DNA of 48,141 nucleotides from an uncultured virus (IMG/VR IMGVR_UViG_3300010163_001408) (IMGVR_UViG_3300010163_001408); one strand, 5' to 3'. Shown: positions 9,917-46,414, numbered from the stretch's first letter. Translations and numbers: made by a program. Notes: generated by a model not told the origin, from the letters alone.

Positions 9917-9918
9917 AT

Positions 9919-10212
9919 ATGATAGATAAGAAGGAACACATAAGATGTGGTTGGTGCAGTAAGATATCTACTCTAGGTGAATGGAATGATTTGACATATA
10001 GTAAATGTGTAAACAGAGAAATGAAAAGGGCATTTACAGAGTTAACACAAGAGAAAGCATTTTTGCACAAGTCAAATACATTTTATATGTGTCCTAAGTG
10101 CAAAACATGGAGTAGAGGTAGTCAGTTAGCTATAGTAGATACAGACAACGAAAAGCTATTAAAACTAGGTAGGGAACCTACTATAGGAAATCCAGAAGAA
10201 TTTTTATCATAA
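9919..10212 (+). CDS. Small zinc-ribbon protein
   Basis: CGWC ... CPKC pair; AGGAG RBS at the end of the upstream gene. Confidence 0.75.
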   Translation: MIDKKEHIRCGWCSKISTLGEWNDLTYSKCVNREMKRAFTELTQEKAFLHKSNTFYMCPKCKTWSRGSQLAIVDTDNEKLLKLGREPTIGNPEEFLS

Positions 10213-10236
10213 GTTAACAATAAATTAACATAACAG

Positions 10237-10345
10237 ACAAGTTGTCTAACATTTAAACTAGTTGATTGATTTAATCAACTAGTTTTTAATTTGTTAAAAA
10301 TTTTAATTGAGGTGCAACAAGTTATAAAAGTTACAGTAACTAGTT
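10237..10345. promoter_or_regulatory. Array of ACWAGTT motifs at ~21-bp phasing (candidate protein-binding array)
   Basis: ACWAGTT starts at 10237, 10257, 10278, 10317 and 10339; an extended form recurs at 30696 and 34551. Confidence 0.4.
10255..10287 (+). terminator. Inverted repeat / intrinsic terminator
   Basis: aaactagttgatt / aatcaactagttt perfect 13-bp stem, then a T-rich tail. Confidence 0.7.
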
Positions 10346-10477
10346 ATTAAATATACTATGACAATAAAATAGGCCTAAAATGACACATAGTGGTAAAATT
10401 TGGTATGCCTTAACAGATGCATTACAATTAGATTGTGATAACAATATTTTAAATTAAAAAGGAAAGGGTGAACAGAT

Positions 10478-16264: not shown

Positions 16265-16352
16265 AATATACTAAAAGTAATTTAATTTTTTATGGTGGTG
16301 TTTGTAAAAATATTAGATGCATTTCAATTACAGCAGGAGGATAAATAGAATT

Positions 16353-20211: not shown

Positions 20212-22461
20212 ATGGAGATAAGCAAATTATTACTTACTAACTACATGCCATATGCTAAAGCAACTATTATATCCAGAGCCATACCAAGCATAGATGGGTT
20301 AAAACCTGTTCAAAGAAGAATACTATACATCATGAATGATATGGGTTTAACAGGAGATGACAATGCAAAATGTCAACGTATTAATGGGCAAGTAATGCGT
20401 ATACATCCTCATGGTGATAGTAGTATATATGATGCACTCATTCTTATGTCAACAGGACATGAGGGTTTAAATGCACCATACATTAAGAGTAAAGGTAACT
20501 TTGGTAAAAAATATTCAAGAGACCTGGCATATGCAGCACCACGTTATACTGAAGCCAGATTAGCACCTATATGCAAGGAACTATTTGATGGAATTAAGGA
20601 AAACTCTGTAGATTTCATTGATAACTTTGATGCTACAGAAAAAGAACCAACCTTATTACCTGTAAAATTTCCTACAATCCTTATAAATTCTAATTCGGGT
20701 GTAGCTGTAGGAACAAGTTCTAATATTCCAACATTCTCAATAAAAAATGTTTGTAAAGCAACTCAAGAAATAATTAGGGGCAACATTACAAATGCTGCTG
20801 AACTTGCTGAAGTACTAGGAGTACCAGAGTTTGTAAGTGGTGGCTTCCTGCATGCTAGTCAAGAATCACTTACAAAATTATGTGAGACTGGTAGAGGATC
20901 CTTTGTAATCAGTGGACATGTAGAAGTATATGCATCAAGAATAGTAATTGACCAGATTCCATATACTACGACAGCAGAAGATATTATGGATGCTATTGAA
21001 GAGAATATGAAAAATGGTAAGCTTAAAGGTATAAGGACAGTTAGAGATGAAATTGACCTTAAGGGTTTAAGATTGACTGTAGAAATCAAAGGCGGATATA
21101 ATTCACGTGATATACTTAGAGAGTTATGTAGACTTACACCCTTAAGAACTAAGGTATCATTTAGAACCAGAGTAATTATAGCAAATAGATGTAGAGAATT
21201 AGGTATACTTGAATTATTAAATTACTGGATTCAATTCAGAAGTACTTGTATAGAAAGAATGTATCAATACAGATTAGATAAAGATTCAGTGAAAGAACAC
21301 TTATTAGCTACATGGGATAAGATTAAGCATGATATTTCTGGTGTAGTGCAAATGATCAGTAAGAACACTGACCCTGTGGCAAAGGCTAATCTAATAAACA
21401 ACTACGGTTTGGATGATATACAATCAGAATACTTGCTTGATATGAAGATTAGAAGCATCACAACTGATAGGGCAGCCAAAGCATTAAAAGAATTAGCAGA
21501 CACAAGAAGTAGAATAGCTTATAGTAATAAAGTATTAAATGATGCTAATGAGAAAAACAATATCATTATAAACGAATTAGAAGATATCATAAATAAGTAT
21601 GGAACTGATAACAAAACAATTCAGGCACCTGAATTAACCGATGAGGATACTAAGGCTCCAGAGATTAAAATTAGTGAAGACACAGTAACAGTGGTATTGA
21701 CTAAAAATGGTTATATAAAGAGACTTGTGTCAATAAATGATGTATCACGTAAGTATAGCTATGGCAGCGATGAGGAAGTACTAAGATGGACTATTAAGAA
21801 TAATCAACACTTGTTAGTGTTTGACAGGTTTGGAACAGTGCATAAGATATTAGTAGATGACATTGATTCTTCTCGTGGAGCACTTAAGGAAACATTACAT
21901 GGTAAAGCAAATATTGAGAAGGCTGAGGATGTTATTTGGGCAGATGCATGCGGTGACTACTCTGGATATTTCAATTTAGTATATCCAAATGGTAGAGGAA
22001 CAAGAGTTTATTATAGTAATGCATCAGGAAATAGAGCACAGTACAAGAGTTTATATAATGAGGTAAAACCAAATCAATATTGGGTAACACAGGAAAATCA
22101 GTTCTTTATGATTACACATAGGATGAAAGCAGCATACTGTGATATTACGAGACTTGGTTTGATATCAAACAGGGAAGCATTTAAAGTAGCTAGAGTTGCA
22201 TCTGGTGATTTCTTTACAAAGCTTATACTTTATAAGAATGTACCTAATCCTGGTTTAATTAACCTTGATAAATATAATAAGGATTATACTGTTTCAATAG
22301 GTAATGATATTCTGTGGATAGATGAGGAATCAATAGCAGAAGCAAGAAGACTTAGGGAAGAAATGCTGAAACAATATGAAGAAAACTCAGAGGATTCAGA
22401 AAACTCAGAGGATACAAACACAAATGAAGAGACAATAAGTACAGAAAACACAGAAGCATAA
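20212..22461 (+). CDS. gyrA: Type IIA topoisomerase subunit A (GyrA/ParC family, no GyrA-box)
   Basis: DGLKPVQRRILY, HPHGDSSIYD, catalytic AAPRYTE, SGVAVG; CTD begins VLTKNGYIKR without QRRGGKG; acidic tail. Confidence 0.93.
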   Translation: MEISKLLLTNYMPYAKATIISRAIPSIDGLKPVQRRILYIMNDMGLTGDDNAKCQRINGQVMRIHPHGDSSIYDALILMSTGHEGLNAPYIKSKGNFGKKYSRDLAYAAPRYTEARLAPICKELFDGIKENSVDFIDNFDATEKEPTLLPVKFPTILINSNSGVAVGTSSNIPTFSIKNVCKATQEIIRGNITNAAELAEVLGVPEFVSGGFLHASQESLTKLCETGRGSFVISGHVEVYASRIVIDQIPYTTTAEDIMDAIEENMKNGKLKGIRTVRDEIDLKGLRLTVEIKGGYNSRDILRELCRLTPLRTKVSFRTRVIIANRCRELGILELLNYWIQFRSTCIERMYQYRLDKDSVKEHLLATWDKIKHDISGVVQMISKNTDPVAKANLINNYGLDDIQSEYLLDMKIRSITTDRAAKALKELADTRSRIAYSNKVLNDANEKNNIIINELEDIINKYGTDNKTIQAPELTDEDTKAPEIKISEDTVTVVLTKNGYIKRLVSINDVSRKYSYGSDEEVLRWTIKNNQHLLVFDRFGTVHKILVDDIDSSRGALKETLHGKANIEKAEDVIWADACGDYSGYFNLVYPNGRGTRVYYSNASGNRAQYKSLYNEVKPNQYWVTQENQFFMITHRMKAAYCDITRLGLISNREAFKVARVASGDFFTKLILYKNVPNPGLINLDKYNKDYTVSIGNDILWIDEESIAEARRLREEMLKQYEENSEDSENSEDTNTNEETISTENTEA

Positions 22462-27707: not shown

Positions 27708-28286
27708 ATGAAAACTTGTCAGTGGTGTGGAAAAATAACAGATGACTTAAAGGAATATACAGATGCACTTGATAACACATACCAAGTTTGTGCCGAGTGC
27801 TTTCAAGGAACAGAAGATTGCATATGCAGAAAATGTGGTAGTACGGTAGATCCTAGTTTCATGATAAATGGTTTATGTACAAACTGTATTCAAGCAGACA
27901 TGAAACTAAAGAGTAAAAGACAAGAAGAAGCAAGAATGGGAATTGATACAGATTTAACAAATGTGCTTAGTTCAGATTTAGAACTTACAGACAAGGATTA
28001 TGAAAAATGGATGACAATGGGCAAGGCATTTTCACCTGATAATATGAAAAGTGTAGAATTAAGAAGACTATGGATTATGGTGAAGCTCAATGCAACTGGA
28101 ATATATGACAATGAAATAATTTCTAAGAACTTTACAGATATAGAAGTATTGCTTGATAGGAGTTTTTCAAAGCTTGTAAATAATAAGTGCAAGATACTTA
28201 TAGGAAGTACAGCAGAGACAAGAAAATTAGTAAGGGAATCAACTGTCATAGATTATGAAAAAGAGGTTTATATTATTAAGGCATAA
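27708..28286 (+). CDS. Zinc-finger protein
   Basis: CQWC, CAEC, CRKC, CTNC in the N-terminal ~60 aa. Confidence 0.7.
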   Translation: MKTCQWCGKITDDLKEYTDALDNTYQVCAECFQGTEDCICRKCGSTVDPSFMINGLCTNCIQADMKLKSKRQEEARMGIDTDLTNVLSSDLELTDKDYEKWMTMGKAFSPDNMKSVELRRLWIMVKLNATGIYDNEIISKNFTDIEVLLDRSFSKLVNNKCKILIGSTAETRKLVRESTVIDYEKEVYIIKA

Positions 28287-28324
28287 GCATAAAGAAATAA
28301 GTACTGGAAAGGAAAATAATACTC

Positions 28325-29437
28325 ATGAAGTTAATAATGTGTGACAATGCTAGATGTAAAAAGATAATCAATATAAATGATTCAATAGAGATATCAATAA
28401 GAAATCATTCTAACAATAGATTAGAAACATTAGATTTATGTAAAGATTGCTATGTAGAAATGATAGAGCAAATAACAGCACAAGAGGTTAACATTTGCAA
28501 AATAGCAAACACAGAGTCTGAATATAAAGATAACAATAACAATGAAGCAGCCAGCAATAATCATACAGAATTAATCAGTAACACTAAACAAAAGAATGAA
28601 AACACAGCAGAAATAAATAATAACACTAAACAAAAGAATGAAAGCACAGCAGAAACAAGCAGTAGCACAGGAAAAATTGAAAATAACACAATATATAAAG
28701 ACAATAGTATCAAAGAGCAGGTAGAACCATACAATAAAAGAAAATACAATCATGTAAAAAGTACTCCTGCACAAGATAAAATAAAAGCATATGGTATAGA
28801 TAATATAATAAGAGAATATGTAGAAGAGGACATAAAAGCAACTGAACTAGCTAAACATATAGGAGTAACAATAACATCACTAAATGTATTTTTATCTACC
28901 AATAATATAGTTAAATATAAGTCTAATAAGCACAGAGGTAGAAGAAGTAAAGCAGATGATTACGGCTTAGACCGTATAAAGAAGGAATACATAGAAGATG
29001 GCTTATCAATAGATGAATTAGCAGAGCGTATAGGAATAAAAAGAAGATCATTGATAAAGTATTTAATAAAAAACAATATTCACAGGTATATCAATTCATA
29101 TGTTAAAGATACAGAATCAGTACCTCAAGAGACATCAATAACAGAAAACAAGGCAGTAGAGGAAATAAAAATAGATAAAGTATCTGATATATCAACTAAA
29201 AAGGTAAAAACTACTCAAAGTAAAGCAATAAACATTGAAAATATAAATCCAGCACAAAGATCAATGCTGGCATCACTTGAAGAAAAAACAGACATGCTTC
29301 CTAAAGCATGTAGAACATGTGCATATAGAAATACAACAAATAACTATTGTTGGTATACAATGGTAACTAATAAGCATACTAACGATAATGGTATAGAATG
29401 TAAGCATTACATAGACATAAGGAAGTTAGAACAATGA
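28325..29437 (+). CDS. Putative DNA-binding protein with terminal Cys clusters and two HTH-like repeats
   Basis: CDNARC/CKDC at the N-terminus; YGIDNIIREYVEE...ELAKHIG and YGLDRIKKEYIED...ELAERIG repeats; CRTC...C...C at the C-terminus. Confidence 0.7.
   Translation: MKLIMCDNARCKKIININDSIEISIRNHSNNRLETLDLCKDCYVEMIEQITAQEVNICKIANTESEYKDNNNNEAASNNHTELISNTKQKNENTAEINNNTKQKNESTAETSSSTGKIENNTIYKDNSIKEQVEPYNKRKYNHVKSTPAQDKIKAYGIDNIIREYVEEDIKATELAKHIGVTITSLNVFLSTNNIVKYKSNKHRGRRSKADDYGLDRIKKEYIEDGLSIDELAERIGIKRRSLIKYLIKNNIHRYINSYVKDTESVPQETSITENKAVEEIKIDKVSDISTKKVKTTQSKAINIENINPAQRSMLASLEEKTDMLPKACRTCAYRNTTNNYCWYTMVTNKHTNDNGIECKHYIDIRKLEQ
28579..28655 (+). repeat. 42-bp-period in-frame tandem duplication
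   Basis: taacactaaacaaaagaatgaaa(a/g)cacagcagaaa at 28579 and 28621. Confidence 0.85.
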
Positions 29438-30606
29438 TAAATGAAAATACATTAAAAATACTAAATAACATAGGATTTGGTGCAGATATAGATTCACTTG
29501 AATCTTATATAATTGATTATAAACAAGCAAGGTTGTTATGTAACCTTGCTTTTTATAGTAATAACTATAATAAATTGTATAAGATACTTAAAGAAATTAA
29601 ACCAAACTCTATTGCATTAAGTGATGAAGTTAATTTATCACCATTAGAGAACAATAAATATGATAAATTTATCATAGAATATAATAACATACATGAAGAA
29701 GTATTATATGGTACAAAAAGCATAAACATAAATAACATTAAGTCTAATATAGATACAGAAGAAGATGAGTCAATAGACATAATAGCAATTGCTAATGTTA
29801 GTGGTATAGATATTAGTATTTCATATATAAATGGTTATATTCATAAAATATATGCAATAGGAGAAACTAGTAAATACTTGGATTTAACTAAATTACTTAA
29901 AGATAAATGTGGTATACTATCATATATAGGTGGTATAGCACATTTAAGTTTAGTAGAATTTAGAGGAAAACTTACAATATTTAATAACAATAAAAGGTTA
30001 CAAACTAAATCTTTAAATATACCATGTTCAGTAATGAGATGTATTAGGACAAAAACAGAATTAGACAAATTAGTTGTAGTAATGAATGATATATTTATAG
30101 ATGAAGCAGACGAAGATATAGAATTACCATTTAATAACCAGTGGGATAAAATACAATTTATAAGGGACTTAGATTTAAGTGTACCTCATCATGTACTAAT
30201 AAGAAGTGTAGATAGAGATAACTTAGAGGTAGCATTAACTGAAGCAGATGATTACCTAGAAAATAAGAAAAATAACAATGAGGTTATATATGATTATCAT
30301 GGGATCTTGATAAGGTTCAATAATGATATTATATGTAGTGCAGTAGGTCATAAATTTATATACAATAGCAATGATCCAGAACCAAACAAGATATTTTATT
30401 CAACAGTTAAATCAATTAGCACTACAAATGGAAATAATGGACTAGGTCAGAGATTAAATATAGTAAGGACTCAATGTAATGACAAAGCATATATATCATA
30501 TGTAGACATACATGATATATATGCGCTAGAAATGTGTAATATACAAATAGGCAAAAAAATAAGTTTTAAAGTCATAGAAAATAAAGCAGTTTTATGTAAA
30601 GAATAA
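29434..30606 (+). CDS. Degenerate NAD+-dependent DNA ligase N-half (Ia/adenylation/OB-like) lacking the catalytic KxDG lysine
   Basis: ANVSGIDISISYING resembles KxDGxxxxLxYxxG; VEFRGK resembles EVRGE; YHGILIRFN resembles DGxVxKxN; IHD...IQIGKKI resembles LHN...IGDxV. Confidence 0.6.
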   Translation: MINENTLKILNNIGFGADIDSLESYIIDYKQARLLCNLAFYSNNYNKLYKILKEIKPNSIALSDEVNLSPLENNKYDKFIIEYNNIHEEVLYGTKSININNIKSNIDTEEDESIDIIAIANVSGIDISISYINGYIHKIYAIGETSKYLDLTKLLKDKCGILSYIGGIAHLSLVEFRGKLTIFNNNKRLQTKSLNIPCSVMRCIRTKTELDKLVVVMNDIFIDEADEDIELPFNNQWDKIQFIRDLDLSVPHHVLIRSVDRDNLEVALTEADDYLENKKNNNEVIYDYHGILIRFNNDIICSAVGHKFIYNSNDPEPNKIFYSTVKSISTTNGNNGLGQRLNIVRTQCNDKAYISYVDIHDIYALEMCNIQIGKKISFKVIENKAVLCKE

Positions 30607-30735
30607 ATTAATACATTATAAAATTATAATATACCAAAAAATTGGCATGAGGTTTAAGGAAAATTATAAATTTTTTAATTATTATTTTCAATAAAGTGAC
30701 TAGTTGATAAAAATATTAAACCTTGGGGGTATATT

Positions 30736-32622
30736 ATGGACAAATTTAATCAAGATGAAGAATTTGTAATAGACGATGATGAGGAAATCTTTGGCTTAGA
30801 TGATGACATTGGCATTGAATTAGAAGAAGATGAAGATGATGAAGATGATGAATTGGTAGACTTTGGCGATGATCCAGAAGAAGAAACAGAGGAAGCACCT
30901 GTACAAGAGCAAGCACAATCAAATGAATTATTTAATGATAATAATTATATGGATAATATAGAGTTTGATAATTCTGCTGAACTTATACCAGACAGTAATA
31001 ATACATTTGCGTTAGATAATGAGGAATTTAATTTTGATGAATCAGATTTCACATCTGAAAAAGATGATTTTACTAACGTGTCAGACAGTCTAAATGAGAA
31101 CATGTCAATATATGATGAAGAAAATGCATATAATTATATAGTAGATACACCAAATGCTAATATGTCAAGCAATATAGAATTTGATGAACTACCAGAAGAT
31201 GATATAGACGAATTGAATGTAGACTTAACTACAGCAACTATAGATGATACTAACGCATCAGATTATGATGGGTCAGTGGTAGATAGTAGTGATCTTTATG
31301 ATGAGGATGAAGACACACAAACTACCAATGAGGTTGATTTTATTACTGATAGTGGTGGCATAGTAGTTCAAGATAAAAATGATAATAATGAAAATGGCTT
31401 CAAAATTACTTATGTAAACATAGATAATATAGCAATAACACCAAGAATTAGAAAAATGCACTCAGTAGAAGGCTTAGTGCAATCTATACAGTCAACTGGT
31501 TTATTAATGCCATTAATGGTAGCTCCATTGGCTACAGAAGGTATGTATGTGTTATTGGATGGATACAGACGTTTACAAGCATGTGCAAGAGCAGGAAAAA
31601 CTAAGATACCTTGTGTTATAAATACTAAAGTAAGCACACCTGAAATACCCATACTAGAATCAATGTATAATCATTCACAAAAATATAGTATCAAGGAGCA
31701 GATTGATTATATTGATTACCTAGAAAAAGAAAAAGGTATTATGAATCCTGCTATGATTGAGTATCTACTCCAAATGAATAGTGGTGACTATACAAAATTA
31801 AAAGATATACTTAATGATAATGACGATGACATTGTAACAAAACTGATTGATGGTGTATATGATATAGCAACTGCATTTAAAAAGCTGGAACAACGTCGTA
31901 AGAAAGAATCTCTTGAAGAGAAAGAAAATAAAAAAGCAGCTAGAGTTTATGATGATGCAGAGGAATCTGGTGTAAATCAGATAGAAGGTGCAGGAGAAGA
32001 AGCAGATGGTGCTGCTCTAACAGATGAGCAATTAGCATCATTATCAATAAACCTTGAAAATTTTGATAATGACTTAGAGGATACTTCCTTAGGTGAAATG
32101 ATAGAGGAAGATAAAAAAATTGAAGGCTTTGAACCACACTCACAAGAAGTTGGAAAGCGAGAGTATGTGGATCCTATCATTAAAAAATCAGTTATGACAC
32201 GAGATAATTCTACATGTAGATGTTGTCTCAGAGGCGGAGAACAATATGTTGATATACTTGATTTTCATCATATTACACCAGTTTTTATGGGTGGAGCAGA
32301 TACTGTTGATAATGGTGTTATGTTATGTGTAGCGTGTCATAGATTAGTTCACTTATACAGTACAGGAGATTTACACATAGATAGAGCATTACTTGAAGGT
32401 GATTATGACTCATTAACAGAAGATCAGAAGTCAAGATTTCCAAATGAAGAAATCTTTGAAGATGAAAAAATGCGATTCAAAAGAATCTTAAAATTTGGTG
32501 GTGTTATCCGTAAAGGTATAAGGGACATGGGTATGAACAGAGAACAATATAAGAAAGAGCATCCCAATACAGGTATAGGCAGGCGTAAACCGGGTGTGAA
32601 TGCAGAGCAGGAAATACTATAA
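30736..32622 (+). CDS. ParB/Srx-domain protein with acidic N-terminal region and C-terminal HNH endonuclease
   Basis: LVQSIQSTGLLMPL...LLDGYRRL ParB motif; RDNSTCRCC...DFHHI...GGADTVDNG..LCVACH HNH; ~200-aa D/E-rich N-terminus. Confidence 0.85.
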   Translation: MDKFNQDEEFVIDDDEEIFGLDDDIGIELEEDEDDEDDELVDFGDDPEEETEEAPVQEQAQSNELFNDNNYMDNIEFDNSAELIPDSNNTFALDNEEFNFDESDFTSEKDDFTNVSDSLNENMSIYDEENAYNYIVDTPNANMSSNIEFDELPEDDIDELNVDLTTATIDDTNASDYDGSVVDSSDLYDEDEDTQTTNEVDFITDSGGIVVQDKNDNNENGFKITYVNIDNIAITPRIRKMHSVEGLVQSIQSTGLLMPLMVAPLATEGMYVLLDGYRRLQACARAGKTKIPCVINTKVSTPEIPILESMYNHSQKYSIKEQIDYIDYLEKEKGIMNPAMIEYLLQMNSGDYTKLKDILNDNDDDIVTKLIDGVYDIATAFKKLEQRRKKESLEEKENKKAARVYDDAEESGVNQIEGAGEEADGAALTDEQLASLSINLENFDNDLEDTSLGEMIEEDKKIEGFEPHSQEVGKREYVDPIIKKSVMTRDNSTCRCCLRGGEQYVDILDFHHITPVFMGGADTVDNGVMLCVACHRLVHLYSTGDLHIDRALLEGDYDSLTEDQKSRFPNEEIFEDEKMRFKRILKFGGVIRKGIRDMGMNREQYKKEHPNTGIGRRKPGVNAEQEIL

Positions 32623-32643
32623 AATCAAAGAGGTGAAGTTGTT

Positions 32644-33078
32644 ATGAAGTTACCTAGTGATATAGAGGGGTCTACAAATAAAATTAAGGTAGAAATACTT
32701 GAAATAAATGGGGATACAATAAGATGTAAACATCCAACAAGTGGATATGAAATGCAAGCATTAATTAAAAGTGATATGAAACTTCAAGTAGGCCAAGTGG
32801 TTGTATTAGAATACAGAAAAGATTTATATAATGGCAGATACATAGTATTTGATGAACTCATGGAAGAAATTGATGCTACTGTATTAGAAGCACAGCATAT
32901 CATATCAGAAGGTAAGATGTATACATCATTAATACTAGAAAACTCAACTACAAAACAAAGATTACATTCACTTGTTCCTAGCAACAATACATTATTTGGT
33001 AACACAAGTATAATAATAACAGGTGACAAAGTAAAATTAAGAATAAACAATGGAAATCTGTTTAGTATACAAGTGTAA
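32644..33078 (+). CDS. Hypothetical beta-rich protein (possibly tandem OB-like barrels)
   Basis: QVGQVVVLEY and ITGDKVKLRI end two similar halves; GAGGTG RBS. Confidence 0.6.
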   Translation: MKLPSDIEGSTNKIKVEILEINGDTIRCKHPTSGYEMQALIKSDMKLQVGQVVVLEYRKDLYNGRYIVFDELMEEIDATVLEAQHIISEGKMYTSLILENSTTKQRLHSLVPSNNTLFGNTSIIITGDKVKLRINNGNLFSIQV

Positions 33079-33101
33079 TATCATTCACAAGGAAACTAAT
33101 T

Positions 33102-34073
33102 ATGGGAATAACATTAGATGAGGCATTACAAAATGAGATTATATCTAAAAATATAATAGACTTGTTACCTAAGAAATGTAAGTGTGGTGCAAGACTTGAG
33201 TTTTCAGATTCATTAAGAGAAATAAGATGTACTAATAAAAAATGTAAGCAACACATAATAGCTAGATTGTCTAAGTTTGTAGAGAAAACAAACATAAGTT
33301 TATCAGCTATTGACATAGAAGATATAGTAGAAAAATTAAAAATAATATCACCATACCAAGTATTATTATTACCAATAGCATTTAAAGAGGAAAACAGCAA
33401 GGTAAAATTATTAAACTTGCATGACAAAAATAATGTATTACAAGATATAGAAAATTTAACAAGTAAAGAATATATGTTATATGAGATAATCGAATTATGT
33501 GGCATAGATAATATATCTAAAATAGCATATAAGATATTTAATAACTTTGATTCAATTGATGAAGCTTATGATGAAATAGAAACTGGACAACTTTCATTTA
33601 TAAATGAAAGACTCGGAATAAAAAATCAAGACAGTAGTATAATTTCATTAGAGATATATAATTTATTATTAGACTTAAAAGATGAATTAATATTTGCAGA
33701 AACACTTTTTAAAATAAAAGGTGACGCAAGAGAAAAATTAAATATAGCATTTTCGGATAATATTCAGCCTTATATAAACACAGCAGAACTGTTGGATATA
33801 TTAAATCAAAACAAAAAATTCAGATTTAATCATATAGTAACAATAAATGACAAGACAGATATTTTAGTTAGAAATGCTAATTCGGCAAACAGTAAATTTA
33901 GAGCAGCAAGAATAATAAATGATAAACATATAGCAGAACTGATGAATAAAGGAGAATTGACATTAGATGAGATAGGTACATTTAAAAATGAATTTAAACC
34001 TTTGGGAAGCAAAATATATATTGACAAACTTGAGAATATAATGAAACGTATACAAGAGTTTATAGGAGAATAG
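33102..34073 (+). CDS. NAD+-dependent DNA ligase C-half-like protein (Zn finger, HhH, BRCT)
   Basis: PKKCKCG...RCTNKKC..HIIARLSKF Zn finger; GIDNISK HhH-like; TINDKTDILV...SKFRAA BRCT-like. Confidence 0.7.
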   Translation: MGITLDEALQNEIISKNIIDLLPKKCKCGARLEFSDSLREIRCTNKKCKQHIIARLSKFVEKTNISLSAIDIEDIVEKLKIISPYQVLLLPIAFKEENSKVKLLNLHDKNNVLQDIENLTSKEYMLYEIIELCGIDNISKIAYKIFNNFDSIDEAYDEIETGQLSFINERLGIKNQDSSIISLEIYNLLLDLKDELIFAETLFKIKGDAREKLNIAFSDNIQPYINTAELLDILNQNKKFRFNHIVTINDKTDILVRNANSANSKFRAARIINDKHIAELMNKGELTLDEIGTFKNEFKPLGSKIYIDKLENIMKRIQEFIGE

Positions 34074-34078
34074 CTTAT

Positions 34079-34543
34079 ATGGAAGAGAAGGCAAAGTATA
34101 GAATAATCAAGAAACAGCTTAATGGTATAGAAATACAAAGATTTATACTTGAGTCAATTGATGATGGAAAACAAGCAGCAGTATCTTTAGAAGATACAGT
34201 TAAATTGGCTAGAGTAGGTAAACTATTAGGGGTTACACCTTTATTAGATTTAACAACTGGAGAATATATAATAAATTTTAATGGCACATTAAAAAATATT
34301 CAGGAACATAACAGTATAAGACTCCGATTACTTTGTAGGTTGGTTGATATAACTGGAAAATGTATAGGGTACAAAGCACAGGATAATAGTAATAAAACTT
34401 ATAAGATAAGCATTAATAAAGCATGGGAGTTAGCAATACATAATTCAGTAATAAACGTAGTAGGAAAAGTAATAAACAATAAGAAAGTACTATTAGGCAT
34501 TAACGATTTCAGTTTAAGTCAGTTACCAACAATGATGGAATGA
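34079..34543 (+). CDS. Protein composed solely of two copies of the recurrent ~70-aa domain
   Basis: YRIIKK...VKLARVG and LRLLCR...CIGYKA...VINV...LLGINDFSLSQLP. Confidence 0.75.
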   Translation: MEEKAKYRIIKKQLNGIEIQRFILESIDDGKQAAVSLEDTVKLARVGKLLGVTPLLDLTTGEYIINFNGTLKNIQEHNSIRLRLLCRLVDITGKCIGYKAQDNSNKTYKISINKAWELAIHNSVINVVGKVINNKKVLLGINDFSLSQLPTMME

Positions 34544-34584
34544 AAAACAGGTGACTAGTTAATAAAATTTTATATACAGTGGTA

Positions 34585-34613
34585 TTGACAAAATTAAGGT
34601 GTAGATGTATAAT
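34585..34613 (+). promoter_or_regulatory. Perfect-consensus SigA/sigma70 promoter for infC
   Basis: TTGACA (34585-34590), N17, TATAAT (34608-34613). Confidence 0.9.
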
Positions 34614-34624
34614 GTAGTTGTAAT

Positions 34625-34714
34625 AAAGGAGAATTGTTGTTTATGAAACAAAAACTGGGAAAGATATAGGCTTAATTTTGTTATATTATAGCAATTTTAA
34701 GCCTATTCTTTTTT
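34625..34714 (+). promoter_or_regulatory. Putative attenuator: leader mini-ORF (MKQKLGKI*, 34643-34669) overlapping a terminator-like hairpin
   Basis: AAAGGAG 34625-34631; in-frame TTG TTG TTT ATG; TAG lies in the 5' arm of the ataggcttaa / ttaagcctat stem, followed by TCTTTTTT. Confidence 0.5.
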
Positions 34715-34753
34715 AGAAAAAATTTATAACTACAAGGAGAAGAATAAGAAAAT

Positions 34754-35257
34754 ATGGTAAATTATGAAATTAAGTCAGAGTACGTAAATGTAGTAGACAA
34801 TGAAAATAATGGTCTGACAAAGATGAAGTTAACAGATGCAATAGCATTAGCAGAGAGTACAAATAAAGATGTAATTCTTCTTAGTAATAAAGGAGAGATT
34901 CCTGTAGTAAAAATAGGGGATTACAATAAATTTATATATGAAAAGCAAAAGAAAGAAAAGGAAAATAAAAAGAAGGCAAGATTAAACTCGCAGGAAACTA
35001 AGGAAATTCGCATAAGCGATGCAATAGCACAGCATGACCTTGAAATTAAAGCTAAAAATGTGGATAAAATATTACATAATGGTGATAAGGTGATGCTTGT
35101 TATAAGATACAGGGGAAGATCAGTAAAATTCATAGAAGAAGGACCAAGCAAGTTAGCACACCTGGAAGGATTAATAACAACAGACCATAAGATTGAAAGA
35201 ACACCTAAGATTGAAGGCAACAGAGTTTACATGGTAGTGGCTCCATGTAAAAAATAG
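34754..35257 (+). CDS. infC: Translation initiation factor IF-3
   Basis: VNYEIK...VNVVD, PVVKIGDYNKFIYE.QKKEKE, KEIRIS..IAQHDLEIK, GDKV...YRGR, PKIEG. Confidence 0.93.
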   Translation: MVNYEIKSEYVNVVDNENNGLTKMKLTDAIALAESTNKDVILLSNKGEIPVVKIGDYNKFIYEKQKKEKENKKKARLNSQETKEIRISDAIAQHDLEIKAKNVDKILHNGDKVMLVIRYRGRSVKFIEEGPSKLAHLEGLITTDHKIERTPKIEGNRVYMVVAPCKK

Positions 35258-35266
35258 GAGGATAAC

Positions 35267-36055
35267 ATGAAAAAGTTACTGATTACATTATTGATAACAG
35301 GTTTAGTCATATCAGGTATGACAGGATGTGGAAAAGAGGAAACAAACCAAGGAATCATAATTAGTGCAGGGGATAACTCTAACATCACAAGTAATAACAG
35401 CAGTTCAAACAGTATTGAAAATCAAGATAACAATACTGTTAATAACAGCGATATTGAGGCTAAAGATAATACAGGTTCAGATGTAAATAATATTGAGAAA
35501 GAAAATAATGAATTTTCATTATATGGCATTTGGACAGATGCAAACAACAACATAATAAGCCTATACGACAATGGAATATTTGATGCAACATTGTTAAGTG
35601 AAGCAAAAAGTATATATGGTACTTATGAAACTAATAATAATACTTATATAAAATTGACTTATAACAAATCAGAAAAAATAGAGAATCCAACTGAACAAGA
35701 AGTAATTATTAACAATGGTATTAGGGACGTTGAAACAACAGTGGAACTTACATTAAGTATTGATGAAACTGCAAGAATAATCAAGTTGAATGATGTAGAA
35801 ATGAGTTTATACAGTGAAGTAGAATCTGAGGTTACAGTTACTCAAAATGTAGGTGACACTTCTATTACAGAAAGCAATAATGAGGATGAAAAAATTGTAA
35901 CTGATGAGGCAGAGTTAGAACAAATAAGACAAGAATTGATTGATATGGGAATTGACCCTGACACAGGATTGCCTATGGAAGATTCACAGAAACTTATTGA
36001 TATGGGAATTGATCCATTAACAAGACAGCCTATACAAAGTGAAAGCATAGAATAA
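35267..36055 (+). CDS. Predicted lipoprotein with N/S-rich linker and C-terminal LIDMGIDP duplication
   Basis: MKK plus hydrophobic stretch and MTGC lipobox; AGGAGG RBS; LIDMGIDPxT twice. Confidence 0.8.
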   Translation: MKKLLITLLITGLVISGMTGCGKEETNQGIIISAGDNSNITSNNSSSNSIENQDNNTVNNSDIEAKDNTGSDVNNIEKENNEFSLYGIWTDANNNIISLYDNGIFDATLLSEAKSIYGTYETNNNTYIKLTYNKSEKIENPTEQEVIINNGIRDVETTVELTLSIDETARIIKLNDVEMSLYSEVESEVTVTQNVGDTSITESNNEDEKIVTDEAELEQIRQELIDMGIDPDTGLPMEDSQKLIDMGIDPLTRQPIQSESIE

Positions 36056-36209: not shown

Positions 36210-38378
36210 TTGAAAATGCATTTAATAGCAGTAATTTGGGATAGTCCAGATAAAAACAATATATTAGCATTTAGAATATTAGATTCAGATGCAAAAATAG
36301 CAGTAGATCAACCTTATGCAGCAGTTATGCATGTTGTTTCTAAAAAGATTGCACCTATATATGGAATAGAATATGATACAACATCTAATAAGTTGAAGGG
36401 TTCAAATGGATCATTTGAAAGATATCCAGCAATATGCAATAATAAAATAATTACAAATTCTTTAGTCATAATAGCATCCATTGATAACAAAGGATACAAA
36501 GTTTGTAACTTTATGGGAACAATGAAAAGTGCTCCTGTAAACGCAGTACTGCGTTTTGCCGAAAAAGCAGGCATAGCAAATGGAAAAATAGTTAATAAAG
36601 GAGACAAAAGATTTATAAGTGCAATCAATGGTAGTTATGATAATATACCTTTAGCACAAGATAAAGAATTAAGTAAATCATTAGGAAACAATAGTGCTGA
36701 AACAGCTATTAAAAATTCATATAGTAATAGGTTTGCAAGAGTAATTACTGGCGTACCTGCTGTGGATTCTAAATTAAAGGTATTAGATACAATTACAGGC
36801 ATGACAGTAGAACAAAAGCTGGCTTATGTAATGTTGGCATTAAAGAAAGTAAGACCTTTCTATTATTCTATATTTACAACACTTAATAGAGTTGAAGCCA
36901 ACCCAGCTGACGGAATAAGTACTATGGCAGTTAGTATAGACACATTGTACTTTAATTCAGACTTTATAGTGGAAACAAGCCTTGAGGAATTGTTATTTAT
37001 AACAATACATGAATTATATCACATAGCTATGAGACATAGAGCAAGAGAAAAAGGCAGAGATCATAGAATATGGAATGAGGCATGCGATTATTATATAAAC
37101 AAGTCAATAGCAGTTGAGTTTGGTTTAAAGGAGCAAGGAGATAAAGCTAATGTACAAGTTAAAGATAGGGATAACAACACAGTCCATGGATCTACATATG
37201 TAATAGAATTACCATGCAGTGGGTTATACAACCCAGCTATAAACATAGATATAGATACACCAGAATCCATATATGAAGAGTTGTCAGAATTGAAAAATAA
37301 TGGGGAAGGTGGAAGTAGCACCAACAGTAATGGTAGTGGTAATGATTCTAATGCCAACAATAAAAATAAGAACAACGGATCTGGAAATGGAGATGGACAG
37401 TCTGAAGATGAAGATGGGCAGTCAGAATTAGAGAAGTTAGCAAAAGGTGAAACAGAAGAAGACGAGAATGAGCAAGATGAACAAGGCAAACAAGGCAAAC
37501 AAGGCAAACAAGGCAAACAAGGCAAACAAGGCAAACAAGGCAAACAAGGCAAAGATGGTGAACAGCAAGAGACTGAACAGCAAGACGAGAATGATGGATT
37601 AACAGGAAAAATGTTTAGGGGCAGAAAGATACCTAAACATCAGTCAGATATAGTAGATGACAATAAAACTAAATCAATGTCACCTGATCAAATTGATCAA
37701 ATGTCTAAATCTTTATTAACAAGAGCAGTTACAACACATAGACAGAAACATAGTTTTGGTGGAGAAGCAGGGTCATTCCTTGAGAGAGTTGTAGAAAGAG
37801 CATTAGCACCTAAGATAGATTGGAGGTCATTACTTAGGAATAAGCTTACAAAGGCAACACAGAAGATCAATACATTTGCAGCACCAGACAGAAGATTTAG
37901 AAGCAGAAACATGATAATGCCTGGACCTAAACCTTTGGAAAATGATGCACTTGAAAATATTAAAATATGTGTGGATACCAGTGGTTCTATATCAGATAGA
38001 GATATAGGTATAGCGTTTGCTCAGATAGAGCAGCTGTTTAAGAACTTTAAAGCAGAGGCGGAGGTATTATATTGGGATACACAGATAAGAGCAATATATC
38101 CATTTAAAGATATATTTGAATTAGTGAGAACTAAACCTATGGGTGGTGGTGGAACTGATGCTAACTGTGTGTTTGAATACTTTGAAACAAATAGAGATTA
38201 CAAGGTAGGAATAAAGAAACCACCTTCAATAATAGTGATATTTACTGATGGTTACATACCAGAAGTTGAACCAAAATATAAAAAGTATCATAACAAAGTA
38301 ATATGGGTTGTAAACGATAATTTAAGATTTGAAGCACCATTTGGTCAAATGGCACAGTTTAGAAATAGTGAAAATTAG
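36210..38378 (+). CDS. HExxH metallopeptidase-like plus VWA domain protein (DUF2201-type) with N-terminal recurrent-domain pair
   Basis: IHELYHI...WNEACDYYIN; DWRSLLR; MIDAS VDTSGS, GGGTD, FTDG; low-complexity G/N/Q linker. Confidence 0.85.
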   Translation: MKMHLIAVIWDSPDKNNILAFRILDSDAKIAVDQPYAAVMHVVSKKIAPIYGIEYDTTSNKLKGSNGSFERYPAICNNKIITNSLVIIASIDNKGYKVCNFMGTMKSAPVNAVLRFAEKAGIANGKIVNKGDKRFISAINGSYDNIPLAQDKELSKSLGNNSAETAIKNSYSNRFARVITGVPAVDSKLKVLDTITGMTVEQKLAYVMLALKKVRPFYYSIFTTLNRVEANPADGISTMAVSIDTLYFNSDFIVETSLEELLFITIHELYHIAMRHRAREKGRDHRIWNEACDYYINKSIAVEFGLKEQGDKANVQVKDRDNNTVHGSTYVIELPCSGLYNPAINIDIDTPESIYEELSELKNNGEGGSSTNSNGSGNDSNANNKNKNNGSGNGDGQSEDEDGQSELEKLAKGETEEDENEQDEQGKQGKQGKQGKQGKQGKQGKQGKDGEQQETEQQDENDGLTGKMFRGRKIPKHQSDIVDDNKTKSMSPDQIDQMSKSLLTRAVTTHRQKHSFGGEAGSFLERVVERALAPKIDWRSLLRNKLTKATQKINTFAAPDRRFRSRNMIMPGPKPLENDALENIKICVDTSGSISDRDIGIAFAQIEQLFKNFKAEAEVLYWDTQIRAIYPFKDIFELVRTKPMGGGGTDANCVFEYFETNRDYKVGIKKPPSIIVIFTDGYIPEVEPKYKKYHNKVIWVVNDNLRFEAPFGQMAQFRNSEN
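37482..37553 (+). repeat. Perfect 9-bp tandem repeat (CAAGGCAAA)x8 encoding (QGK)8
   Basis: Eight identical in-frame units within the linker of the VWA protein. Confidence 0.97.
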
Positions 38379-40874: not shown

Positions 40875-41345
40875 GTGATACCAGTGTATAGTGAAGCTAA
40901 GAAAAATACTATTACCATTGAAAACAAGAAGGCATACTATGATTATTATGTAGAAGAATCGTTGGAGTGCGGTATTGAACTTAGAGGCAATGAAGTGAAA
41001 TCCATTAGGGATGGCAAGACTTCTATTAAAGAATCTTGGGTAGCAGTAGAAAATAACCAGTTAATCATTAAAAAGATGCATATTACAGCTTGGGATAAGT
41101 CTAACAAGTTTGATGTAGATGAAACCAGAGAAAGAAAGCTGTTGGCACATAAGACAGAGATAAGAAAGTTTGATACGGCAGTTCAACGAGGTGGTTATAC
41201 AATCATACCTCTCAAGATTTACATAAGTAAAGCAGGAAAAGTCAAGGTGCTTATTGGTTTATGTAAGGGTAAACATATATATGACAAACGGAGAGTAGAA
41301 AAAGAGAAGCAGGTCAAGCGCGACATTCAGAGAATTGTAAAATAA
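40875..41345 (+). CDS. smpB: SsrA-binding protein SmpB
   Basis: ENKKAYYDY, ECGIELRGNEVKSIR, RERKLLAHK.EI, TIIPLKIY, KGK..YDKR tail; GTG start at 40875 or 40884. Confidence 0.96.
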   Translation: MIPVYSEAKKNTITIENKKAYYDYYVEESLECGIELRGNEVKSIRDGKTSIKESWVAVENNQLIIKKMHITAWDKSNKFDVDETRERKLLAHKTEIRKFDTAVQRGGYTIIPLKIYISKAGKVKVLIGLCKGKHIYDKRRVEKEKQVKRDIQRIVK

Positions 41346-42296: not shown

Positions 42297-44696
42297 ATGA
42301 TGGGAAAGAGTAGAAACATGGAACATTATTTTATCAAAATTGCAAATTTCAATGACGCAGCTAACAAGGTTGTAAATCATGCAATCAAGTATTCAGGTGA
42401 TGAAAAGTGTCAAGATGTAAATACAGTACACATGTTTTTAGGTATTCTCGAAACATCCAAAATTGGAGAGAACATACTCAAACATATGAATACAACATTT
42501 GATATGGTATACGGATCATATCAGACACTAGCTGAATCAGGAAGATATGGTAGACTTGACACCAGCAATATAGAGTTTAATCCTGATTATTTTTCTCCAG
42601 AAGTATTTCATATTATAGGCATATGTGCCACAAGAACAGCCATGACAAATAAAGAAGCATCCGTAGAAACCTTGCTCAAGGAACTTTTGGATTTTGAGAG
42701 TGAAATCTTGGAAGACTTCTTTAAATACATTGGACTTGATATTAAGGACATTAACGATGCCAGAGGCGGAGATTTTTACATACCTGATGAATTAGAAGAT
42801 TTCATTGAGGATGTTCACAAGTGCAAGGGAGTAACAGAAGATACAATTACAAACGTAGACAACTACGTAGATGAAATGATTGAGGTACTGTGTAGAAAGA
42901 AGAAGGCAAATCCATGCATTATTGGTGAAGCTGGAGTTGGTAAGACGACTATAGTATATAGATTAGCTCAGCGTATTATAAGTGGAGATGTACCTGCTGA
43001 ATTAAAAGATCAGCACATTGTATACGTTAATGGATCTACCTTGACATCTGGTACTAGATTCAGAGGAGATTTCGAGGAACGCATGAAGAATATTATGGAT
43101 TGGGCTTCTAAGGAGAAGGTAATAATATTCTTAGATGAAATACATACATTCATTAATGCAGGTGATACTGGGCATAATGATGGCAGTACAGCAGGAAATA
43201 TGTTTAAGCGGTATTTGTCAGACGGTGCAATCAGAATTATTGGTGCAACAACTATCCGCGAATATCATTCTTCTATTGAAAAGGATAAAGCATTCAATAG
43301 AAGAATGCAGAAGATTGTTATTACAGAGCCAACTGTTGATCAGGCAACAGAAATCATCAAGAATACCATTGTAGATTATGAGAAATTTCATAATGTAAAG
43401 GTACCTGAGGAACTTATTAAGATGCTAGTAAGATTATCAGATAGATACATAAAGGATAACTTTTTACCTGACAAAGCATACACAGTACTTGATCAAGCTT
43501 GTACTAAAGCTAAGTTGAGCAATAAGAAAGTCCTGGATGAACAGACCGTACTTGATACGATATCTAAGCTTACCAAGATTGATGTTACAAGACTCAATGC
43601 AAATGAATCAGATAGACTTATCAATCTTGAAAAAATCATTGGAGAAAACCTGATTGGTCAGGAAAATGCTGTGAAAACAGTATGCAAGGCAATAAGACGT
43701 TCTAAGACAGGTGTAAGACAAGGAAATAAGCCTATTGCTTCATTCTTATTCGTAGGTCCTACAGGAGTAGGAAAGACGGAACTCTGTAAGGTTTTAAGTA
43801 AAGAAGTAGCAATGGGAGAACAATCCTTAATTAAGATTGATATGTCAGAGTTTACAGAGAAGAACAGTGTGAGCAGGCTTTTGGGAACTACTGCTGGATA
43901 CATTGGGTATGGTGAGGGTGGTCAACTGACTGAAAAGGTTAAACATAATCCATACTCAATAGTGCTTTTGGATGAAATTGAGAAGGCACATCCTGATATC
44001 TTTAACACATTTTTGCAGTTATTGGACGAAGGTAAGTTAACTGATGGCGAAGGAACAACAGTTGACTTTACAAACTGTATCATAGTAATGACATCTAATG
44101 CAGGATATGGTGCAGATGGAATGAATAAAAAGCCTATCGGCATAGCAGCTCAGGAAGAAAAAGTAGATAGCAGGAAGACAGAAAGGATAGCACTTAAGGC
44201 TCTTGAGGAAACATTTAAGCCCGAGTTCCTTAACCGCATTGATAATGTAGTTATCTTTGAGAAACTGACTAAAGAACAGTGTCATGACATTGTAGGACTT
44301 ATGCTAAAAGATCTCACTGCAAGATTGAATGAGCAGGATATCACCTTAAGTTTCGATGATAGCATTATCAATAGGGTTGTTGAAACGGGTTATAGTGATA
44401 AGTATGGTGCAAGAAACCTTAGAAGAGAAATTCAGGACACTATAGAGGATACAATATCAGATGCAATCTTAGCTAAGACAATTAGCAAAGGTGACAGTGC
44501 AAAGGTTTACTGGGCTGATGACGAAGTAAAACTGGATGTAAAACATAGTGTTAAAAAGAGCAGCAGGTGTAAAACTAAAAACACTAAGATGCATATTGAA
44601 AACAACATTGAAGCAACCTATGAAACAAATAAAATTGAAGAAGCAGAAGCAACTGAAGAGACAAAAACACAAGAGAAAGAAACAATATTGCATTAA
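42297..44696 (+). CDS. clpC: Hsp100/Clp ATP-binding subunit (ClpA/ClpC family; no M-domain; IGF-like loop)
   Basis: GEAGVGKT/LDEIH and GPTGVGKT/LDEIEKAHP nucleotide-binding domains; GTRFRGDFEER and GYIGY pore loops; PIGI loop; PEFLNRID; YGARNLRR. Confidence 0.92.
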   Translation: MMGKSRNMEHYFIKIANFNDAANKVVNHAIKYSGDEKCQDVNTVHMFLGILETSKIGENILKHMNTTFDMVYGSYQTLAESGRYGRLDTSNIEFNPDYFSPEVFHIIGICATRTAMTNKEASVETLLKELLDFESEILEDFFKYIGLDIKDINDARGGDFYIPDELEDFIEDVHKCKGVTEDTITNVDNYVDEMIEVLCRKKKANPCIIGEAGVGKTTIVYRLAQRIISGDVPAELKDQHIVYVNGSTLTSGTRFRGDFEERMKNIMDWASKEKVIIFLDEIHTFINAGDTGHNDGSTAGNMFKRYLSDGAIRIIGATTIREYHSSIEKDKAFNRRMQKIVITEPTVDQATEIIKNTIVDYEKFHNVKVPEELIKMLVRLSDRYIKDNFLPDKAYTVLDQACTKAKLSNKKVLDEQTVLDTISKLTKIDVTRLNANESDRLINLEKIIGENLIGQENAVKTVCKAIRRSKTGVRQGNKPIASFLFVGPTGVGKTELCKVLSKEVAMGEQSLIKIDMSEFTEKNSVSRLLGTTAGYIGYGEGGQLTEKVKHNPYSIVLLDEIEKAHPDIFNTFLQLLDEGKLTDGEGTTVDFTNCIIVMTSNAGYGADGMNKKPIGIAAQEEKVDSRKTERIALKALEETFKPEFLNRIDNVVIFEKLTKEQCHDIVGLMLKDLTARLNEQDITLSFDDSIINRVVETGYSDKYGARNLRREIQDTIEDTISDAILAKTISKGDSAKVYWADDEVKLDVKHSVKKSSRCKTKNTKMHIENNIEATYETNKIEEAEATEETKTQEKETILH

Positions 44697-45625: not shown

Positions 45626-46414
45626 ATGGCACATTATATTTTGCAATCAAACACGAATGATTTAGATATAGAAAATGAAATAATAAAAGATTTATTAAAA
45701 AAGAATAAAATGCTGTATAATTATGACACAATGGCATTAAATGATATTAAAGAGGGCAGTAAACTTGTGGTAGATGGCAATATCCCTATAGGAGATATAC
45801 CATTTGTAACAAAATTTTTAAACATAACGTATGGATTAGAAAAAGAAAATCCCATAGAAATTCCTGTATATTTAAGAACGGATGAATTTTTAAAGAGAGA
45901 TTACAAGATACTAGAAATAGAGAATTTACCAAGATTAGGTAATTACTTTATAAAAGATGTTGAGACATTGAAACATTTTAGTTACACAGGGTATTTGGAA
46001 TATTTACCAATTGATGAAATGTTACAAGAATCAGCAAAATCATATGATTATTCATTAAAGATAAAGCCACATACATTGTATTCAATGAGTAGTATATTTT
46101 ATATACAATCAGAATATAGAGTATATATCATAGATGGTGAAATAGAGGCAATAGCAAATTATAATGGTGACTGTACAATACTTCCAGATATCAATTTAAT
46201 TAAAAAGATGATACAGCTAATAAATTATAATGAAAAATGGTTAAAATCGTACACATTGGATATTATGGTAGGTAAAGAAGGTACAGCCATTATAGAAGTC
46301 CATAATTTTGCCTCAGTTGGTTTATATACAAGTTTGTGGGGAGATAGTTTATTATATGCTTATAAGCAGGGCATAGAATATCTTGTGAATGACAACCATA
46401 GAATAGTAGTGTAG
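45626..46414 (+). CDS. ATP-grasp domain protein (DUF4343/R2K-like)
   Basis: YFIKD, SEYRVYIIDGEI, YTLDI...IIEVH.FASVGLY ATP-grasp motifs. Confidence 0.75.
   Translation: MAHYILQSNTNDLDIENEIIKDLLKKNKMLYNYDTMALNDIKEGSKLVVDGNIPIGDIPFVTKFLNITYGLEKENPIEIPVYLRTDEFLKRDYKILEIENLPRLGNYFIKDVETLKHFSYTGYLEYLPIDEMLQESAKSYDYSLKIKPHTLYSMSSIFYIQSEYRVYIIDGEIEAIANYNGDCTILPDINLIKKMIQLINYNEKWLKSYTLDIMVGKEGTAIIEVHNFASVGLYTSLWGDSLLYAYKQGIEYLVNDNHRIVV

Follow-up and report, generated by a model that had tools for sequence, protein, structure and literature searches.

Two-subunit NAD+-dependent DNA ligases are already known from phages. T5-like Vibrio phages are annotated with ligase subunits A and B, which in phage Thalassa are separated by three small genes, and the heterodimeric NAD+ ligase of PR1 phage has been solved (PDB 9hu3 and 9i5i), such two-piece enzymes having been solved structurally only recently; we found no paper that names either PDB entry or treats the PR1 ligase. 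Here we describe a related locus in DNA of an uncultured virus (IMG/VR IMGVR_UViG_3300010163_001408); the whole stretch analysed, 48,141 nucleotides, is called the window. An earlier annotation made from the window's DNA alone (the sequence-only reading) had proposed that two of its open reading frames (ORFs) are the halves of a split, apparently catalytically dead LigA on either side of a ParB-HNH gene. It envisaged an exapted pseudo-enzyme, which might serve as a nick-sensing clamp, as a dominant-negative inhibitor of the host LigA or as a scaffold for the HNH nuclease. It considered the motif I lysine essential for adenylation, in agreement with a review (PMC7470946), according to which the first step of ligation is adenylylation of this lysine, a lysine-to-methionine mutation blocks that step, and the lysines of motifs I and V handle the AMP phosphate.

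Given that two-piece NAD+ ligases had been described, the new element is a large lysine-less clade nested in a family of lysine-bearing split ligases. Proteins and phages are called lysine-type or dead-type below, depending on whether the motif I lysine is kept. We consider it fairly probable that the window pair is a split-ligase pseudo-enzyme that was displaced by a full-length LigA and kept for a non-catalytic role in DNA binding or as a scaffold.

Results

ORF A and ORF B are the halves of a split LigA homologue

ORF A (390 aa; 29434-30606, plus strand) comprises a LigA-like domain Ia, an adenylation (NTase) domain and an OB fold without the catalytic residues, and ORF B (323 aa; 33102-34073, plus strand) comprises a Cys4 zinc finger, an HhH domain and a BRCT domain; these are the parts by which members of the LigA superfamily are recognised. 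Both ORFs were found where the sequence-only reading had placed them, and its view of the pair as a split LigA homologue was borne out, since profiles, structure models and Foldseek agreed.

As a single sequence ORF A matched no ligase family in Pfam (E ≤ 1), PHROGs (E ≤ 0.01) or NCBIfam (E ≤ 0.01) and gave no tblastn match at E ≤ 1e-3 among 50,697 phage records, and single-sequence searches of the PDB with ORF A or ORF B returned chance-level matches only. Pfam recognised neither half; ORF B was labelled ‘NAD-dependent DNA ligase’ by PHROGs and its domains were assigned with PHROGs, NCBIfam, the model and Foldseek. For ORF A the assignment came from the family profile, from Pfam matches of relatives, from the model and from Foldseek. 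The homologue set of ORF A consisted of 36 proteins of 320-404 aa, of which 35 were aligned and the 320-aa partial protein P0025 was left out. When the profile of these 35 members was compared with the PDB, all 16 sequences listed at E ≤ 10 were NAD-dependent DNA ligases, the best match being 3jsl_A (E = 6e-5), and motif I was in register, with the ‘n’ of the family's ‘nieG’ aligned to the K of KIDG. PF01653 was matched individually by 22 of the 35 members (E ≤ 0.1).

The AlphaFold models of ORF A and ORF B, built from the family alignments, were confident, and Foldseek matched models A and B to chains A and B of 9hu3 and 9i5i at 12-15% identity. The zinc finger of ORF B is formed by C26, C28, C43 and C48 (nt 33177-33245) and the BRCT domain covers approximately residues 208-322. 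The split point lies between the OB fold and the zinc finger, and the profile ranges of the two halves were complementary in the related locus L004 (proteins L004A and L004B). Homology and fold identify the pair as the subunits of a split phage DNA ligase of the NAD+-dependent kind. The ‘TG’ motif of the BRCT domain was tried as a marker of the dead state and rejected, as it is lost in dead-type B proteins but also in the lysine-type B proteins of loci L012-L014.

Catalytic residues are lost from ORF A

Window A was aligned with the full-length LigA of a related phage (locus L005) and with the lysine-bearing split relative L004A. All four motifs, which lie on the plus strand, had been read exactly in the earlier annotation. 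Motif I, canonically KxDG, is reduced to NVSG (residues 121-124; 29794-29805), with the glycine alone kept, where the full-length LigA has KLDG and L004A KENG. AIGET replaces TRGDG (residues 141-145; 29854-29868), so that I stands at the position of the lost arginine; the corresponding loops read TRGNG in LigA and TRGRY in L004A. In motif III, EFRGK is found in place of EVRGE (residues 175-179; 29956-29970), the E and RG being kept (FRGK, compared with LRGE in LigA and VRGE in L004A) and E175, R177 and G178 being nearly invariant. The motif IV remnant HGILIR (canonical DGxVxK; residues 289-294; 30298-30315) has lost the aspartate to H and kept the basic residue (HGIL, compared with DGLV in LigA and DGIV in L004A). 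At motif V, AFKW of LigA and ALKM of L004A correspond to IYNS, and nothing stands opposite the lysine in the final alignment (a gap; N in the first alignment). The D..YD segment of domain Ia, which binds NMN, reads DDAAYD in lysine-type proteins and YSNNYN in the window, where the tyrosine has been retained but the acids have been lost.

The larger alignment had 167 rows, namely the 36 close homologues, 129 of the 150 listed matches of a search with L004A, L004A itself and the L005 LigA; 14 proteins shorter than 300 aa and seven duplicates of the 36 were excluded. Of the 167 members 60 have no motif I lysine, and every one of the 36 close homologues is among them. K115, R136, D285 and K314 (E. 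coli numbering) were lost together in 51 members and kept together in 98. The ORF A family has kept the motif III E-x-RG, a basic residue at the position of the motif IV lysine and an arginine equivalent to R208. Among the features of an active ligase window A has motif III. It lacks the lysines of motifs I and V, the arginine of TRG and the aspartate of motif IV, and is therefore almost certainly unable to seal nicks. Judging from the alignments, we consider it highly probable that the window pair as a whole cannot ligate.

An enzyme with another nucleophile or substrate, for example one that uses a different lysine or transfers a nucleotidyl group onto something other than DNA, would make sense of these retained residues and also of K147 and K179, which are fairly conserved and near the former pocket in sequence. 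However, the four catalytic positions were lost together or all kept in the numbers of proteins given above, and the use of a lysine outside motif I is not known from the covalent nucleotidyltransferase superfamily. We regard continued catalysis of this kind as very unlikely.

The lysine-less proteins are nested among lysine-type split ligases

The exhaustive search with L004A gave 3942 matches at E ≤ 1e-3, 150 of them listed, and revealed a very large family of ‘subunit A’ proteins of 370-490 aa. In a FastTree phylogeny of the 167 rows the split proteins formed one side and the full-length LigAs the other. Window A fell into a clade of 63 rows (support 97) with 59 lysine-less members, which is itself part of an 82-row clade (support 99) shared with L004A and other lysine-type proteins. 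On this tree at least five changes are required to explain the lysine-less state, four of them imposed by well-supported branches, and one lysine-less subclade comprises 53 or more representatives when clustered at 50% identity. In 20 lysine-type proteins K118, N120, G121, R139, G140, R141, R172, E174, D285, G286 and K314 were invariant. On this phylogenetic evidence a lysine-bearing split ligase was the ancestor of the dead form, which is old and diverse.

Further split-A lineages without the motif I lysine (proteins P0208, P0213, P0238, P0251, P0255 and P0291) apparently represent independent losses. The motif V lysine is kept in P0208, P0213 and P0238, and the DG of motif IV in P0208, P0213 and P0251. 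By their residues, partly degraded lineages such as P0208 and P0213 look like earlier stages of the same decay.

A full-length ligase in at least one dead-type phage

Record G003 (268 kb, estimated to be 89% complete) carries a dead A together with a 751-aa LigA that has KLDG, TRG, RGE, DG and K. This LigA (L005 1018-3273) was taken as phage-encoded because the genes around it are on the same strand, the GC content is 30.4% and the few family matches among its neighbours are phage PHROGs. Moreover, the longest contigs were exactly equal in size between dead-A and LigA clusters in four cases (600378, 429817, 451431 and 236864 bp), and these appear to be the same four contigs carrying both a dead A and a full-length LigA. 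In the lysine-type records G004-G007 (100%, 79%, 61% and 100% complete) the split A was the only PF01653 match in four of four. No ATP-dependent ligase match was found in G001-G004. Pfam scans covered 38 of the window's 44 plus-strand ORFs of at least 60 aa (E ≤ 1 for 11 ORFs and E ≤ 0.001 for 27; six ORFs of 68-262 aa were left out), and no ligase family was matched. That catalysis could be lost would be explained most simply by the second, intact LigA of related phages, which the sequence-only reading had no means of detecting.

The LigA of G003 has an N-terminal extension of approximately 95-100 aa ahead of domain Ia. The family of such LigAs of about 750 aa is large, with contigs up to 627,629 bp, and many of its members are 99-100% identical.

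Both halves are intact and evolve rapidly

The sequence-only reading had argued that the two ORFs do not look like decaying pseudogenes, and this held: intact homologues occur in 36 clusters for A and 42 for B, down to about 30% identity, and the predicted folds are confident. Chance does not explain either open frame. ORF A has no in-frame stop, compared with 57 and 71 in the other two forward frames. From the base composition of the window, with P(stop) = 0.09 and a stop every ~11 codons, the chance of 390 open codons is approximately 9e-17. All full-length ORF A homologues listed are open frames of 369-404 aa, and the A and B families have 15 invariant columns each.

In the conservation profile the most conserved stretch of ORF A is GFGADIDSLESY (29473-29508, plus strand), which covers helix 0, a turn and the start of Ia helix 1. 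It holds five of the 15 invariant columns of the family (G16, D18, L22, E23 and S24), L10 just upstream being a sixth. Mean conservation peaks at residues 1-20 (0.76), and the first 60 residues are best conserved, not the former active site; the least conserved 20-residue bin is 301-320, the motif V region (0.37). The N-terminal motif GFGADIDSLESY is common to the lysine-type relatives and missing from canonical LigA.

As a yardstick for the rate of evolution, the identity of A or B was divided by that of ParB-HNH for each pair of phages. For A this ratio was 1.09-1.80 in six lysine-type pairs and 0.47-0.67 in six dead-type pairs; for B it was 0.96-1.29 and 0.51-0.72, respectively. Between the dead-type loci L002 and L003, for instance, A was 44.0% and B 43.7% identical, compared with 84.2% for the RuvC-like protein, 84.6% for ParB-HNH, 77.9% for a 223-aa protein and 70.1% for IF3. 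Among the loci with DNA even the closest pair shares no more than 44% protein identity, a distance at which saturation of synonymous sites is expected. Relative to ParB-HNH the dead-type halves evolve about twice as fast as the lysine-type halves, yet they stay intact. That both halves lost constraint together suggests that A and B work as a unit.

The acceleration of both halves, as well as the low conservation around motif V, would be expected of a functionless relic, that is, a split ligase which became dispensable after the arrival of a full-length LigA and decays slowly, its frames being open because the event was recent. Such a relic is hard to reconcile with the age and diversity of the lysine-less clade, with the open frames of all listed full-length members in spite of the high chance of a stop, and with the invariant columns of both halves and the confident models. 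This explanation, already disfavoured, is quite improbable.

An arms race could also have produced the fast evolution, if the pair were a conflict protein acting as decoy or inhibitor of a host factor, for instance the LigA of the host at nicks, or a defence system that targets or is triggered by phage ligase or NAD+-derived molecules. No other proteins of the module evolve as fast as A and B in dead-type phages (35-46% identity, compared with 61-85% for neighbours), neither was ever broken among the homologues listed, and a short N-terminal peptide that is better conserved than the former active site is what a binding module would be expected to show. On the other hand, the rise in rate coincides with the loss of catalysis and is equal in both halves, which simple relaxation explains, the genes lie in a replication module and not among typical early anti-defence genes, and a protein that blocks nicks would hinder the phage's own ligase too. 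A role in conflict seems unlikely to us.

The ParB-HNH gene between the halves

The gene between ORF A and ORF B (30736-32622, plus strand) encodes a 628-aa protein with an acidic N-terminal region, assigned with Pfam and PHROGs as ParB_N (Pfam E = 5.2e-8) plus HNH nuclease (Pfam E = 2.5e-9). Its DGYRRLQA motif and its HNH/Cys box are intact. Among 50,697 phage records ten were matched, all by the HNH part only (10-12% of the query), and no cultured relative was found.

The order A, ParB/HNH and B, in some cases with a small ORF ahead of B, was seen in the dead-type loci L001-L003, in the lysine-type locus L004 and in the far more distant lysine-type loci L013 and L014. Thus, the bracketing of ParB-HNH by split halves stood as a layout, whereas the idea that it is special to the dead form fell, because L004, L013 and L014 keep the motif I lysine; ParB-HNH between the halves of lysine-bearing relatives means that the layout is ancestral. 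Nor is the split state itself peculiar to the dead form, as the ligases of T5-like phages and PR1 demonstrate.

The ParB-HNH proteins were 61-85% identical among dead-type phages, compared with 35-44% for A, and 49-85% identical within the window's group, compared with 20-44% for A. The gene occupies the same place in the window, L001-L004, L013 and L014, in contrast to the sporadic distribution of a mobile nuclease. As ParB-HNH is better conserved in the window's group than the two parts of the ligase, its present state does not look like that of a selfish homing endonuclease.

ParB-HNH is followed by an ORF of 144 aa (32644-33078, plus strand), to which no function was assigned, and ORF B by an ORF of 154 aa (34079-34543, plus strand) after a gap of 5 nt. 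From ParB-HNH to the 154-aa ORF the four genes are tightly packed, with gaps of 5-23 nt. Small ORFs of 152-164 aa occupy the position of the 144-aa ORF in L001, L002 and L004, and ORFs of 153-161 aa that of the 154-aa ORF in L001-L004. Neither ORF matched a family in Pfam, PHROGs or NCBIfam. Structure-atlas matches of the 144-aa protein all had TM scores below 0.5 and are leads only, pointing to small beta-barrel domains. A resemblance of the 154-aa ORF to the N-terminal extension of the G003 LigA was rejected, since E = 0.06 in a single comparison was not significant. In L002 an extra 490-aa protein rich in zinc-ribbon/treble-clef elements (9886-11358; DUF4379, E = 6.3e-19) is encoded between ParB-HNH and the small ORF.

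The split ligase and ParB-HNH could form one unit that makes and manages site-specific nicks. Lysine-type phages would then nick and reseal, and in dead-type phages A plus B would only bind, hold or protect the nick, for example against sealing or exonucleases. This would fit the presence of ParB/HNH between the halves in loci whose A proteins range down to ~17% identity, the tight packing of the genes that follow, and the PR1 ligase, which was crystallised on a ‘phage nick sequence’ according to the title of the PDB entry, which shows that split ligases coexist with nicked genomes in a second group of phages. Gene order is weak evidence, however, because synteny extends over the entire module (helicase, RuvC-like, Zn-ribbon, A ... 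IF3). Furthermore, the three small genes between the subunits of Thalassa are hypothetical genes and none is a ParB-HNH gene, the intervening protein of L012 has no Pfam match at E ≤ 0.01, and neither nick sites nor a nicking activity have been described in these phages. We consider a common nick unit rather unlikely; if the link to ParB-HNH is functional, it would be an undescribed nick-handling system. To its more elaborate form we likewise give only a small chance, namely an ancient programmed-nick module in which the lysine-less ligase would be a nick-holding clamp that recognises the breaks made by the nuclease without being able to seal them, and so marks or protects genome interruptions, and a separate full-length LigA would do the ordinary sealing. 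Such a clamp, if true, would be the phage counterpart of the dead-ligase scaffold in the poxvirus replisome.

Genes around the ligase locus

The window is coded on a single strand, has a low GC content (~30%) and is part of a 172,141-bp contig. It includes a replication module of the large-phage kind, with SNF2 and ResIII helicases, GyrB, GyrA, a DnaB-like helicase and a RuvC-like resolvase; no polymerase gene was found among the 38 ORFs scanned with Pfam. The phage has its own type II topoisomerase, with the GyrB-like gene at 16317-18359 and the GyrA/ParC-like gene at 20212-22461, and two ORFs without a family lie in between.

The start codon of ORF A overlaps the stop codon of the upstream ORF (ATGA). 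A 370-aa protein encoded just upstream of ORF A (28325-29437) carries a Zn-ribbon-like pair of Cys residues at either end, the tandemly repeated sequence NNTKQKNE(N/S)TAE, and two segments that resemble an HTH and weakly match HTH_3 and KilA-C/ANT. Downstream of the ligase halves IF3 is followed by SmpB, a ClpB-like ATPase and others. Phage-encoded translation and proteostasis genes were located at 34754-35257, 40875-41345, 42297-44696 and 45626-46414; they include a complete IF3 (IF3_N E = 5.7e-17, IF3_C E = 1.1e-19), SmpB (E = 1.8e-50), a two-ring ClpB-like AAA+ ATPase and an R2K-clade ATP-grasp protein. The IF3 gene is preceded by a gap of 210 nt, in which a perfect sigma-70 consensus is present at 34585-34613 (TTGACA, 17 nt, TATAAT; 12/12), the sole 12/12 site in 28000-35500. 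The promoter scan of this region as a whole was uninformative (58 sites, compared with 53.6 ± 8.8 in shuffles). Terminator-like sites numbered seven in the scanned region, compared with 1.1 ± 1.1 in shuffles, and a hairpin with a 12-bp stem and a T-run, terminator-like on the plus strand, lies inside ORF A near codons 31-40 (29525-29551).

A 722-aa protein (36210-38378) combines a DUF2201 putative metallopeptidase with a VWA-like domain and is interrupted by low-complexity GKQ repeats, which give a weak collagen-repeat match. PHROGs labels it ‘HNH endonuclease’ (phrog_1314, E = 4.3e-76), at odds with its Pfam domains.

Discussion

The course of events that we favour starts from an active split ligase of the KxNG type, whose halves would already have been separated by the ParB-HNH gene. 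The loss of catalysis probably took place among large gut phages in a lineage with an additional, full-length LigA, which would seal the nicks. Purifying selection, weakened but still acting, would then have retained both halves, presumably associated with each other, for a role that needs no catalysis, most likely the binding of DNA (nicks or ends) or a scaffold function in the replication/recombination module. The OB fold, HhH, zinc finger, BRCT domain, R208-equivalent arginine and motif III E-x-RG are still present in the pair. In LigA these are the parts that grip DNA, and for this reason a DNA-binding or scaffold role is favoured.

Several observations weigh against this account. The link to a second ligase comes from one directly examined record (G003) and four coincidences of contig size. 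In the dead-type records G001 (39% complete) and G002 (59% complete) no full-length LigA was found in the available part, and the 172141-bp contig was not among the 120 LigA cluster matches listed. The faster evolution of both halves fits an arms race as well as relaxed constraint. In ORF A, lysines 138, 147 and 179 lie near the former pocket in sequence, the latter two being the fairly conserved ones. Finally, the phylogeny was made with FastTree only, and 56 of its 164 inner branches were unresolved.

A large and old clade of lysine-less split ligases beside an active sister clade with the same gene layout provides a natural before-and-after pair, in which one can ask what a ligase fold is used for after catalysis: nick recognition, clamp formation or replisome scaffolding. 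It also calls for caution in annotation, as PHROGs would name ORF B ‘NAD-dependent DNA ligase’ although the pair very probably cannot ligate. Searches of listings and abstracts of open-access papers and bioRxiv brought up no report on LigA homologues of phages that are catalytically dead, which does not prove that there is none; a paper on retron Eco2 (PMC12916289) yielded nothing relevant.

Compared with the bacterial enzyme (E. coli LigA, PDB 2owo and 5tt5), which is one polypeptide, the window has two and has lost the catalytic residues, and window A, unlike bacterial LigA, is not recognised by PF01653 or TIGR00575. The heterodimeric ligases of T5-like phages and PR1 are similar in being encoded by two genes and split between the OB fold and the zinc finger. 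Window A differs from them in the absence of the motif I lysine and of three other catalytic positions, all of which the lysine-type relatives keep, and from the PR1 ligase in an extra N-terminal helix with the conserved GADIDxLES motif. Subunit B of PR1 has 248 aa, whereas window B has 323 aa and a BRCT domain. The intervening gene of the window is a large ParB-HNH gene, and the identity to the solved subunits is as low as stated above for the Foldseek matches.

Model A also matched chains of 418-436 residues in the poxvirus holoenzyme entries 8hg1, 8q3r, 8wpf and 8k8s (Foldseek E 2.8e-7 to 1.8e-6). From their size these chains are probably A20/A22. In PMC11142717 the middle domain of vaccinia A20, consisting of a catalytic subdomain and an OB fold, is called ‘an inactive DNA ligase’ within the polymerase holoenzyme. 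Like window A, A20 (vaccinia) or A22 (monkeypox virus) is a viral NTase plus OB ligase fold that has no catalysis and is encoded among replication genes. Unlike the phage pair, A20 consists of one chain, links the polymerase to uracil-DNA glycosylase and has neither a domain Ia nor a partner with zinc finger, HhH and BRCT. It offers a precedent for the role proposed here, as an analogy of principle and not as evidence of common descent.

Genes in pieces offer a further comparison: in an Aeromonas T4-like phage the ribonucleotide reductase gene is split by a mobile endonuclease gene. There, as in the window, a nuclease gene of the HNH family lies between the halves of an enzyme, at a domain boundary. 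The nuclease of the window differs in that it is not sporadic, carries a ParB domain and is better conserved than the halves that it separates.

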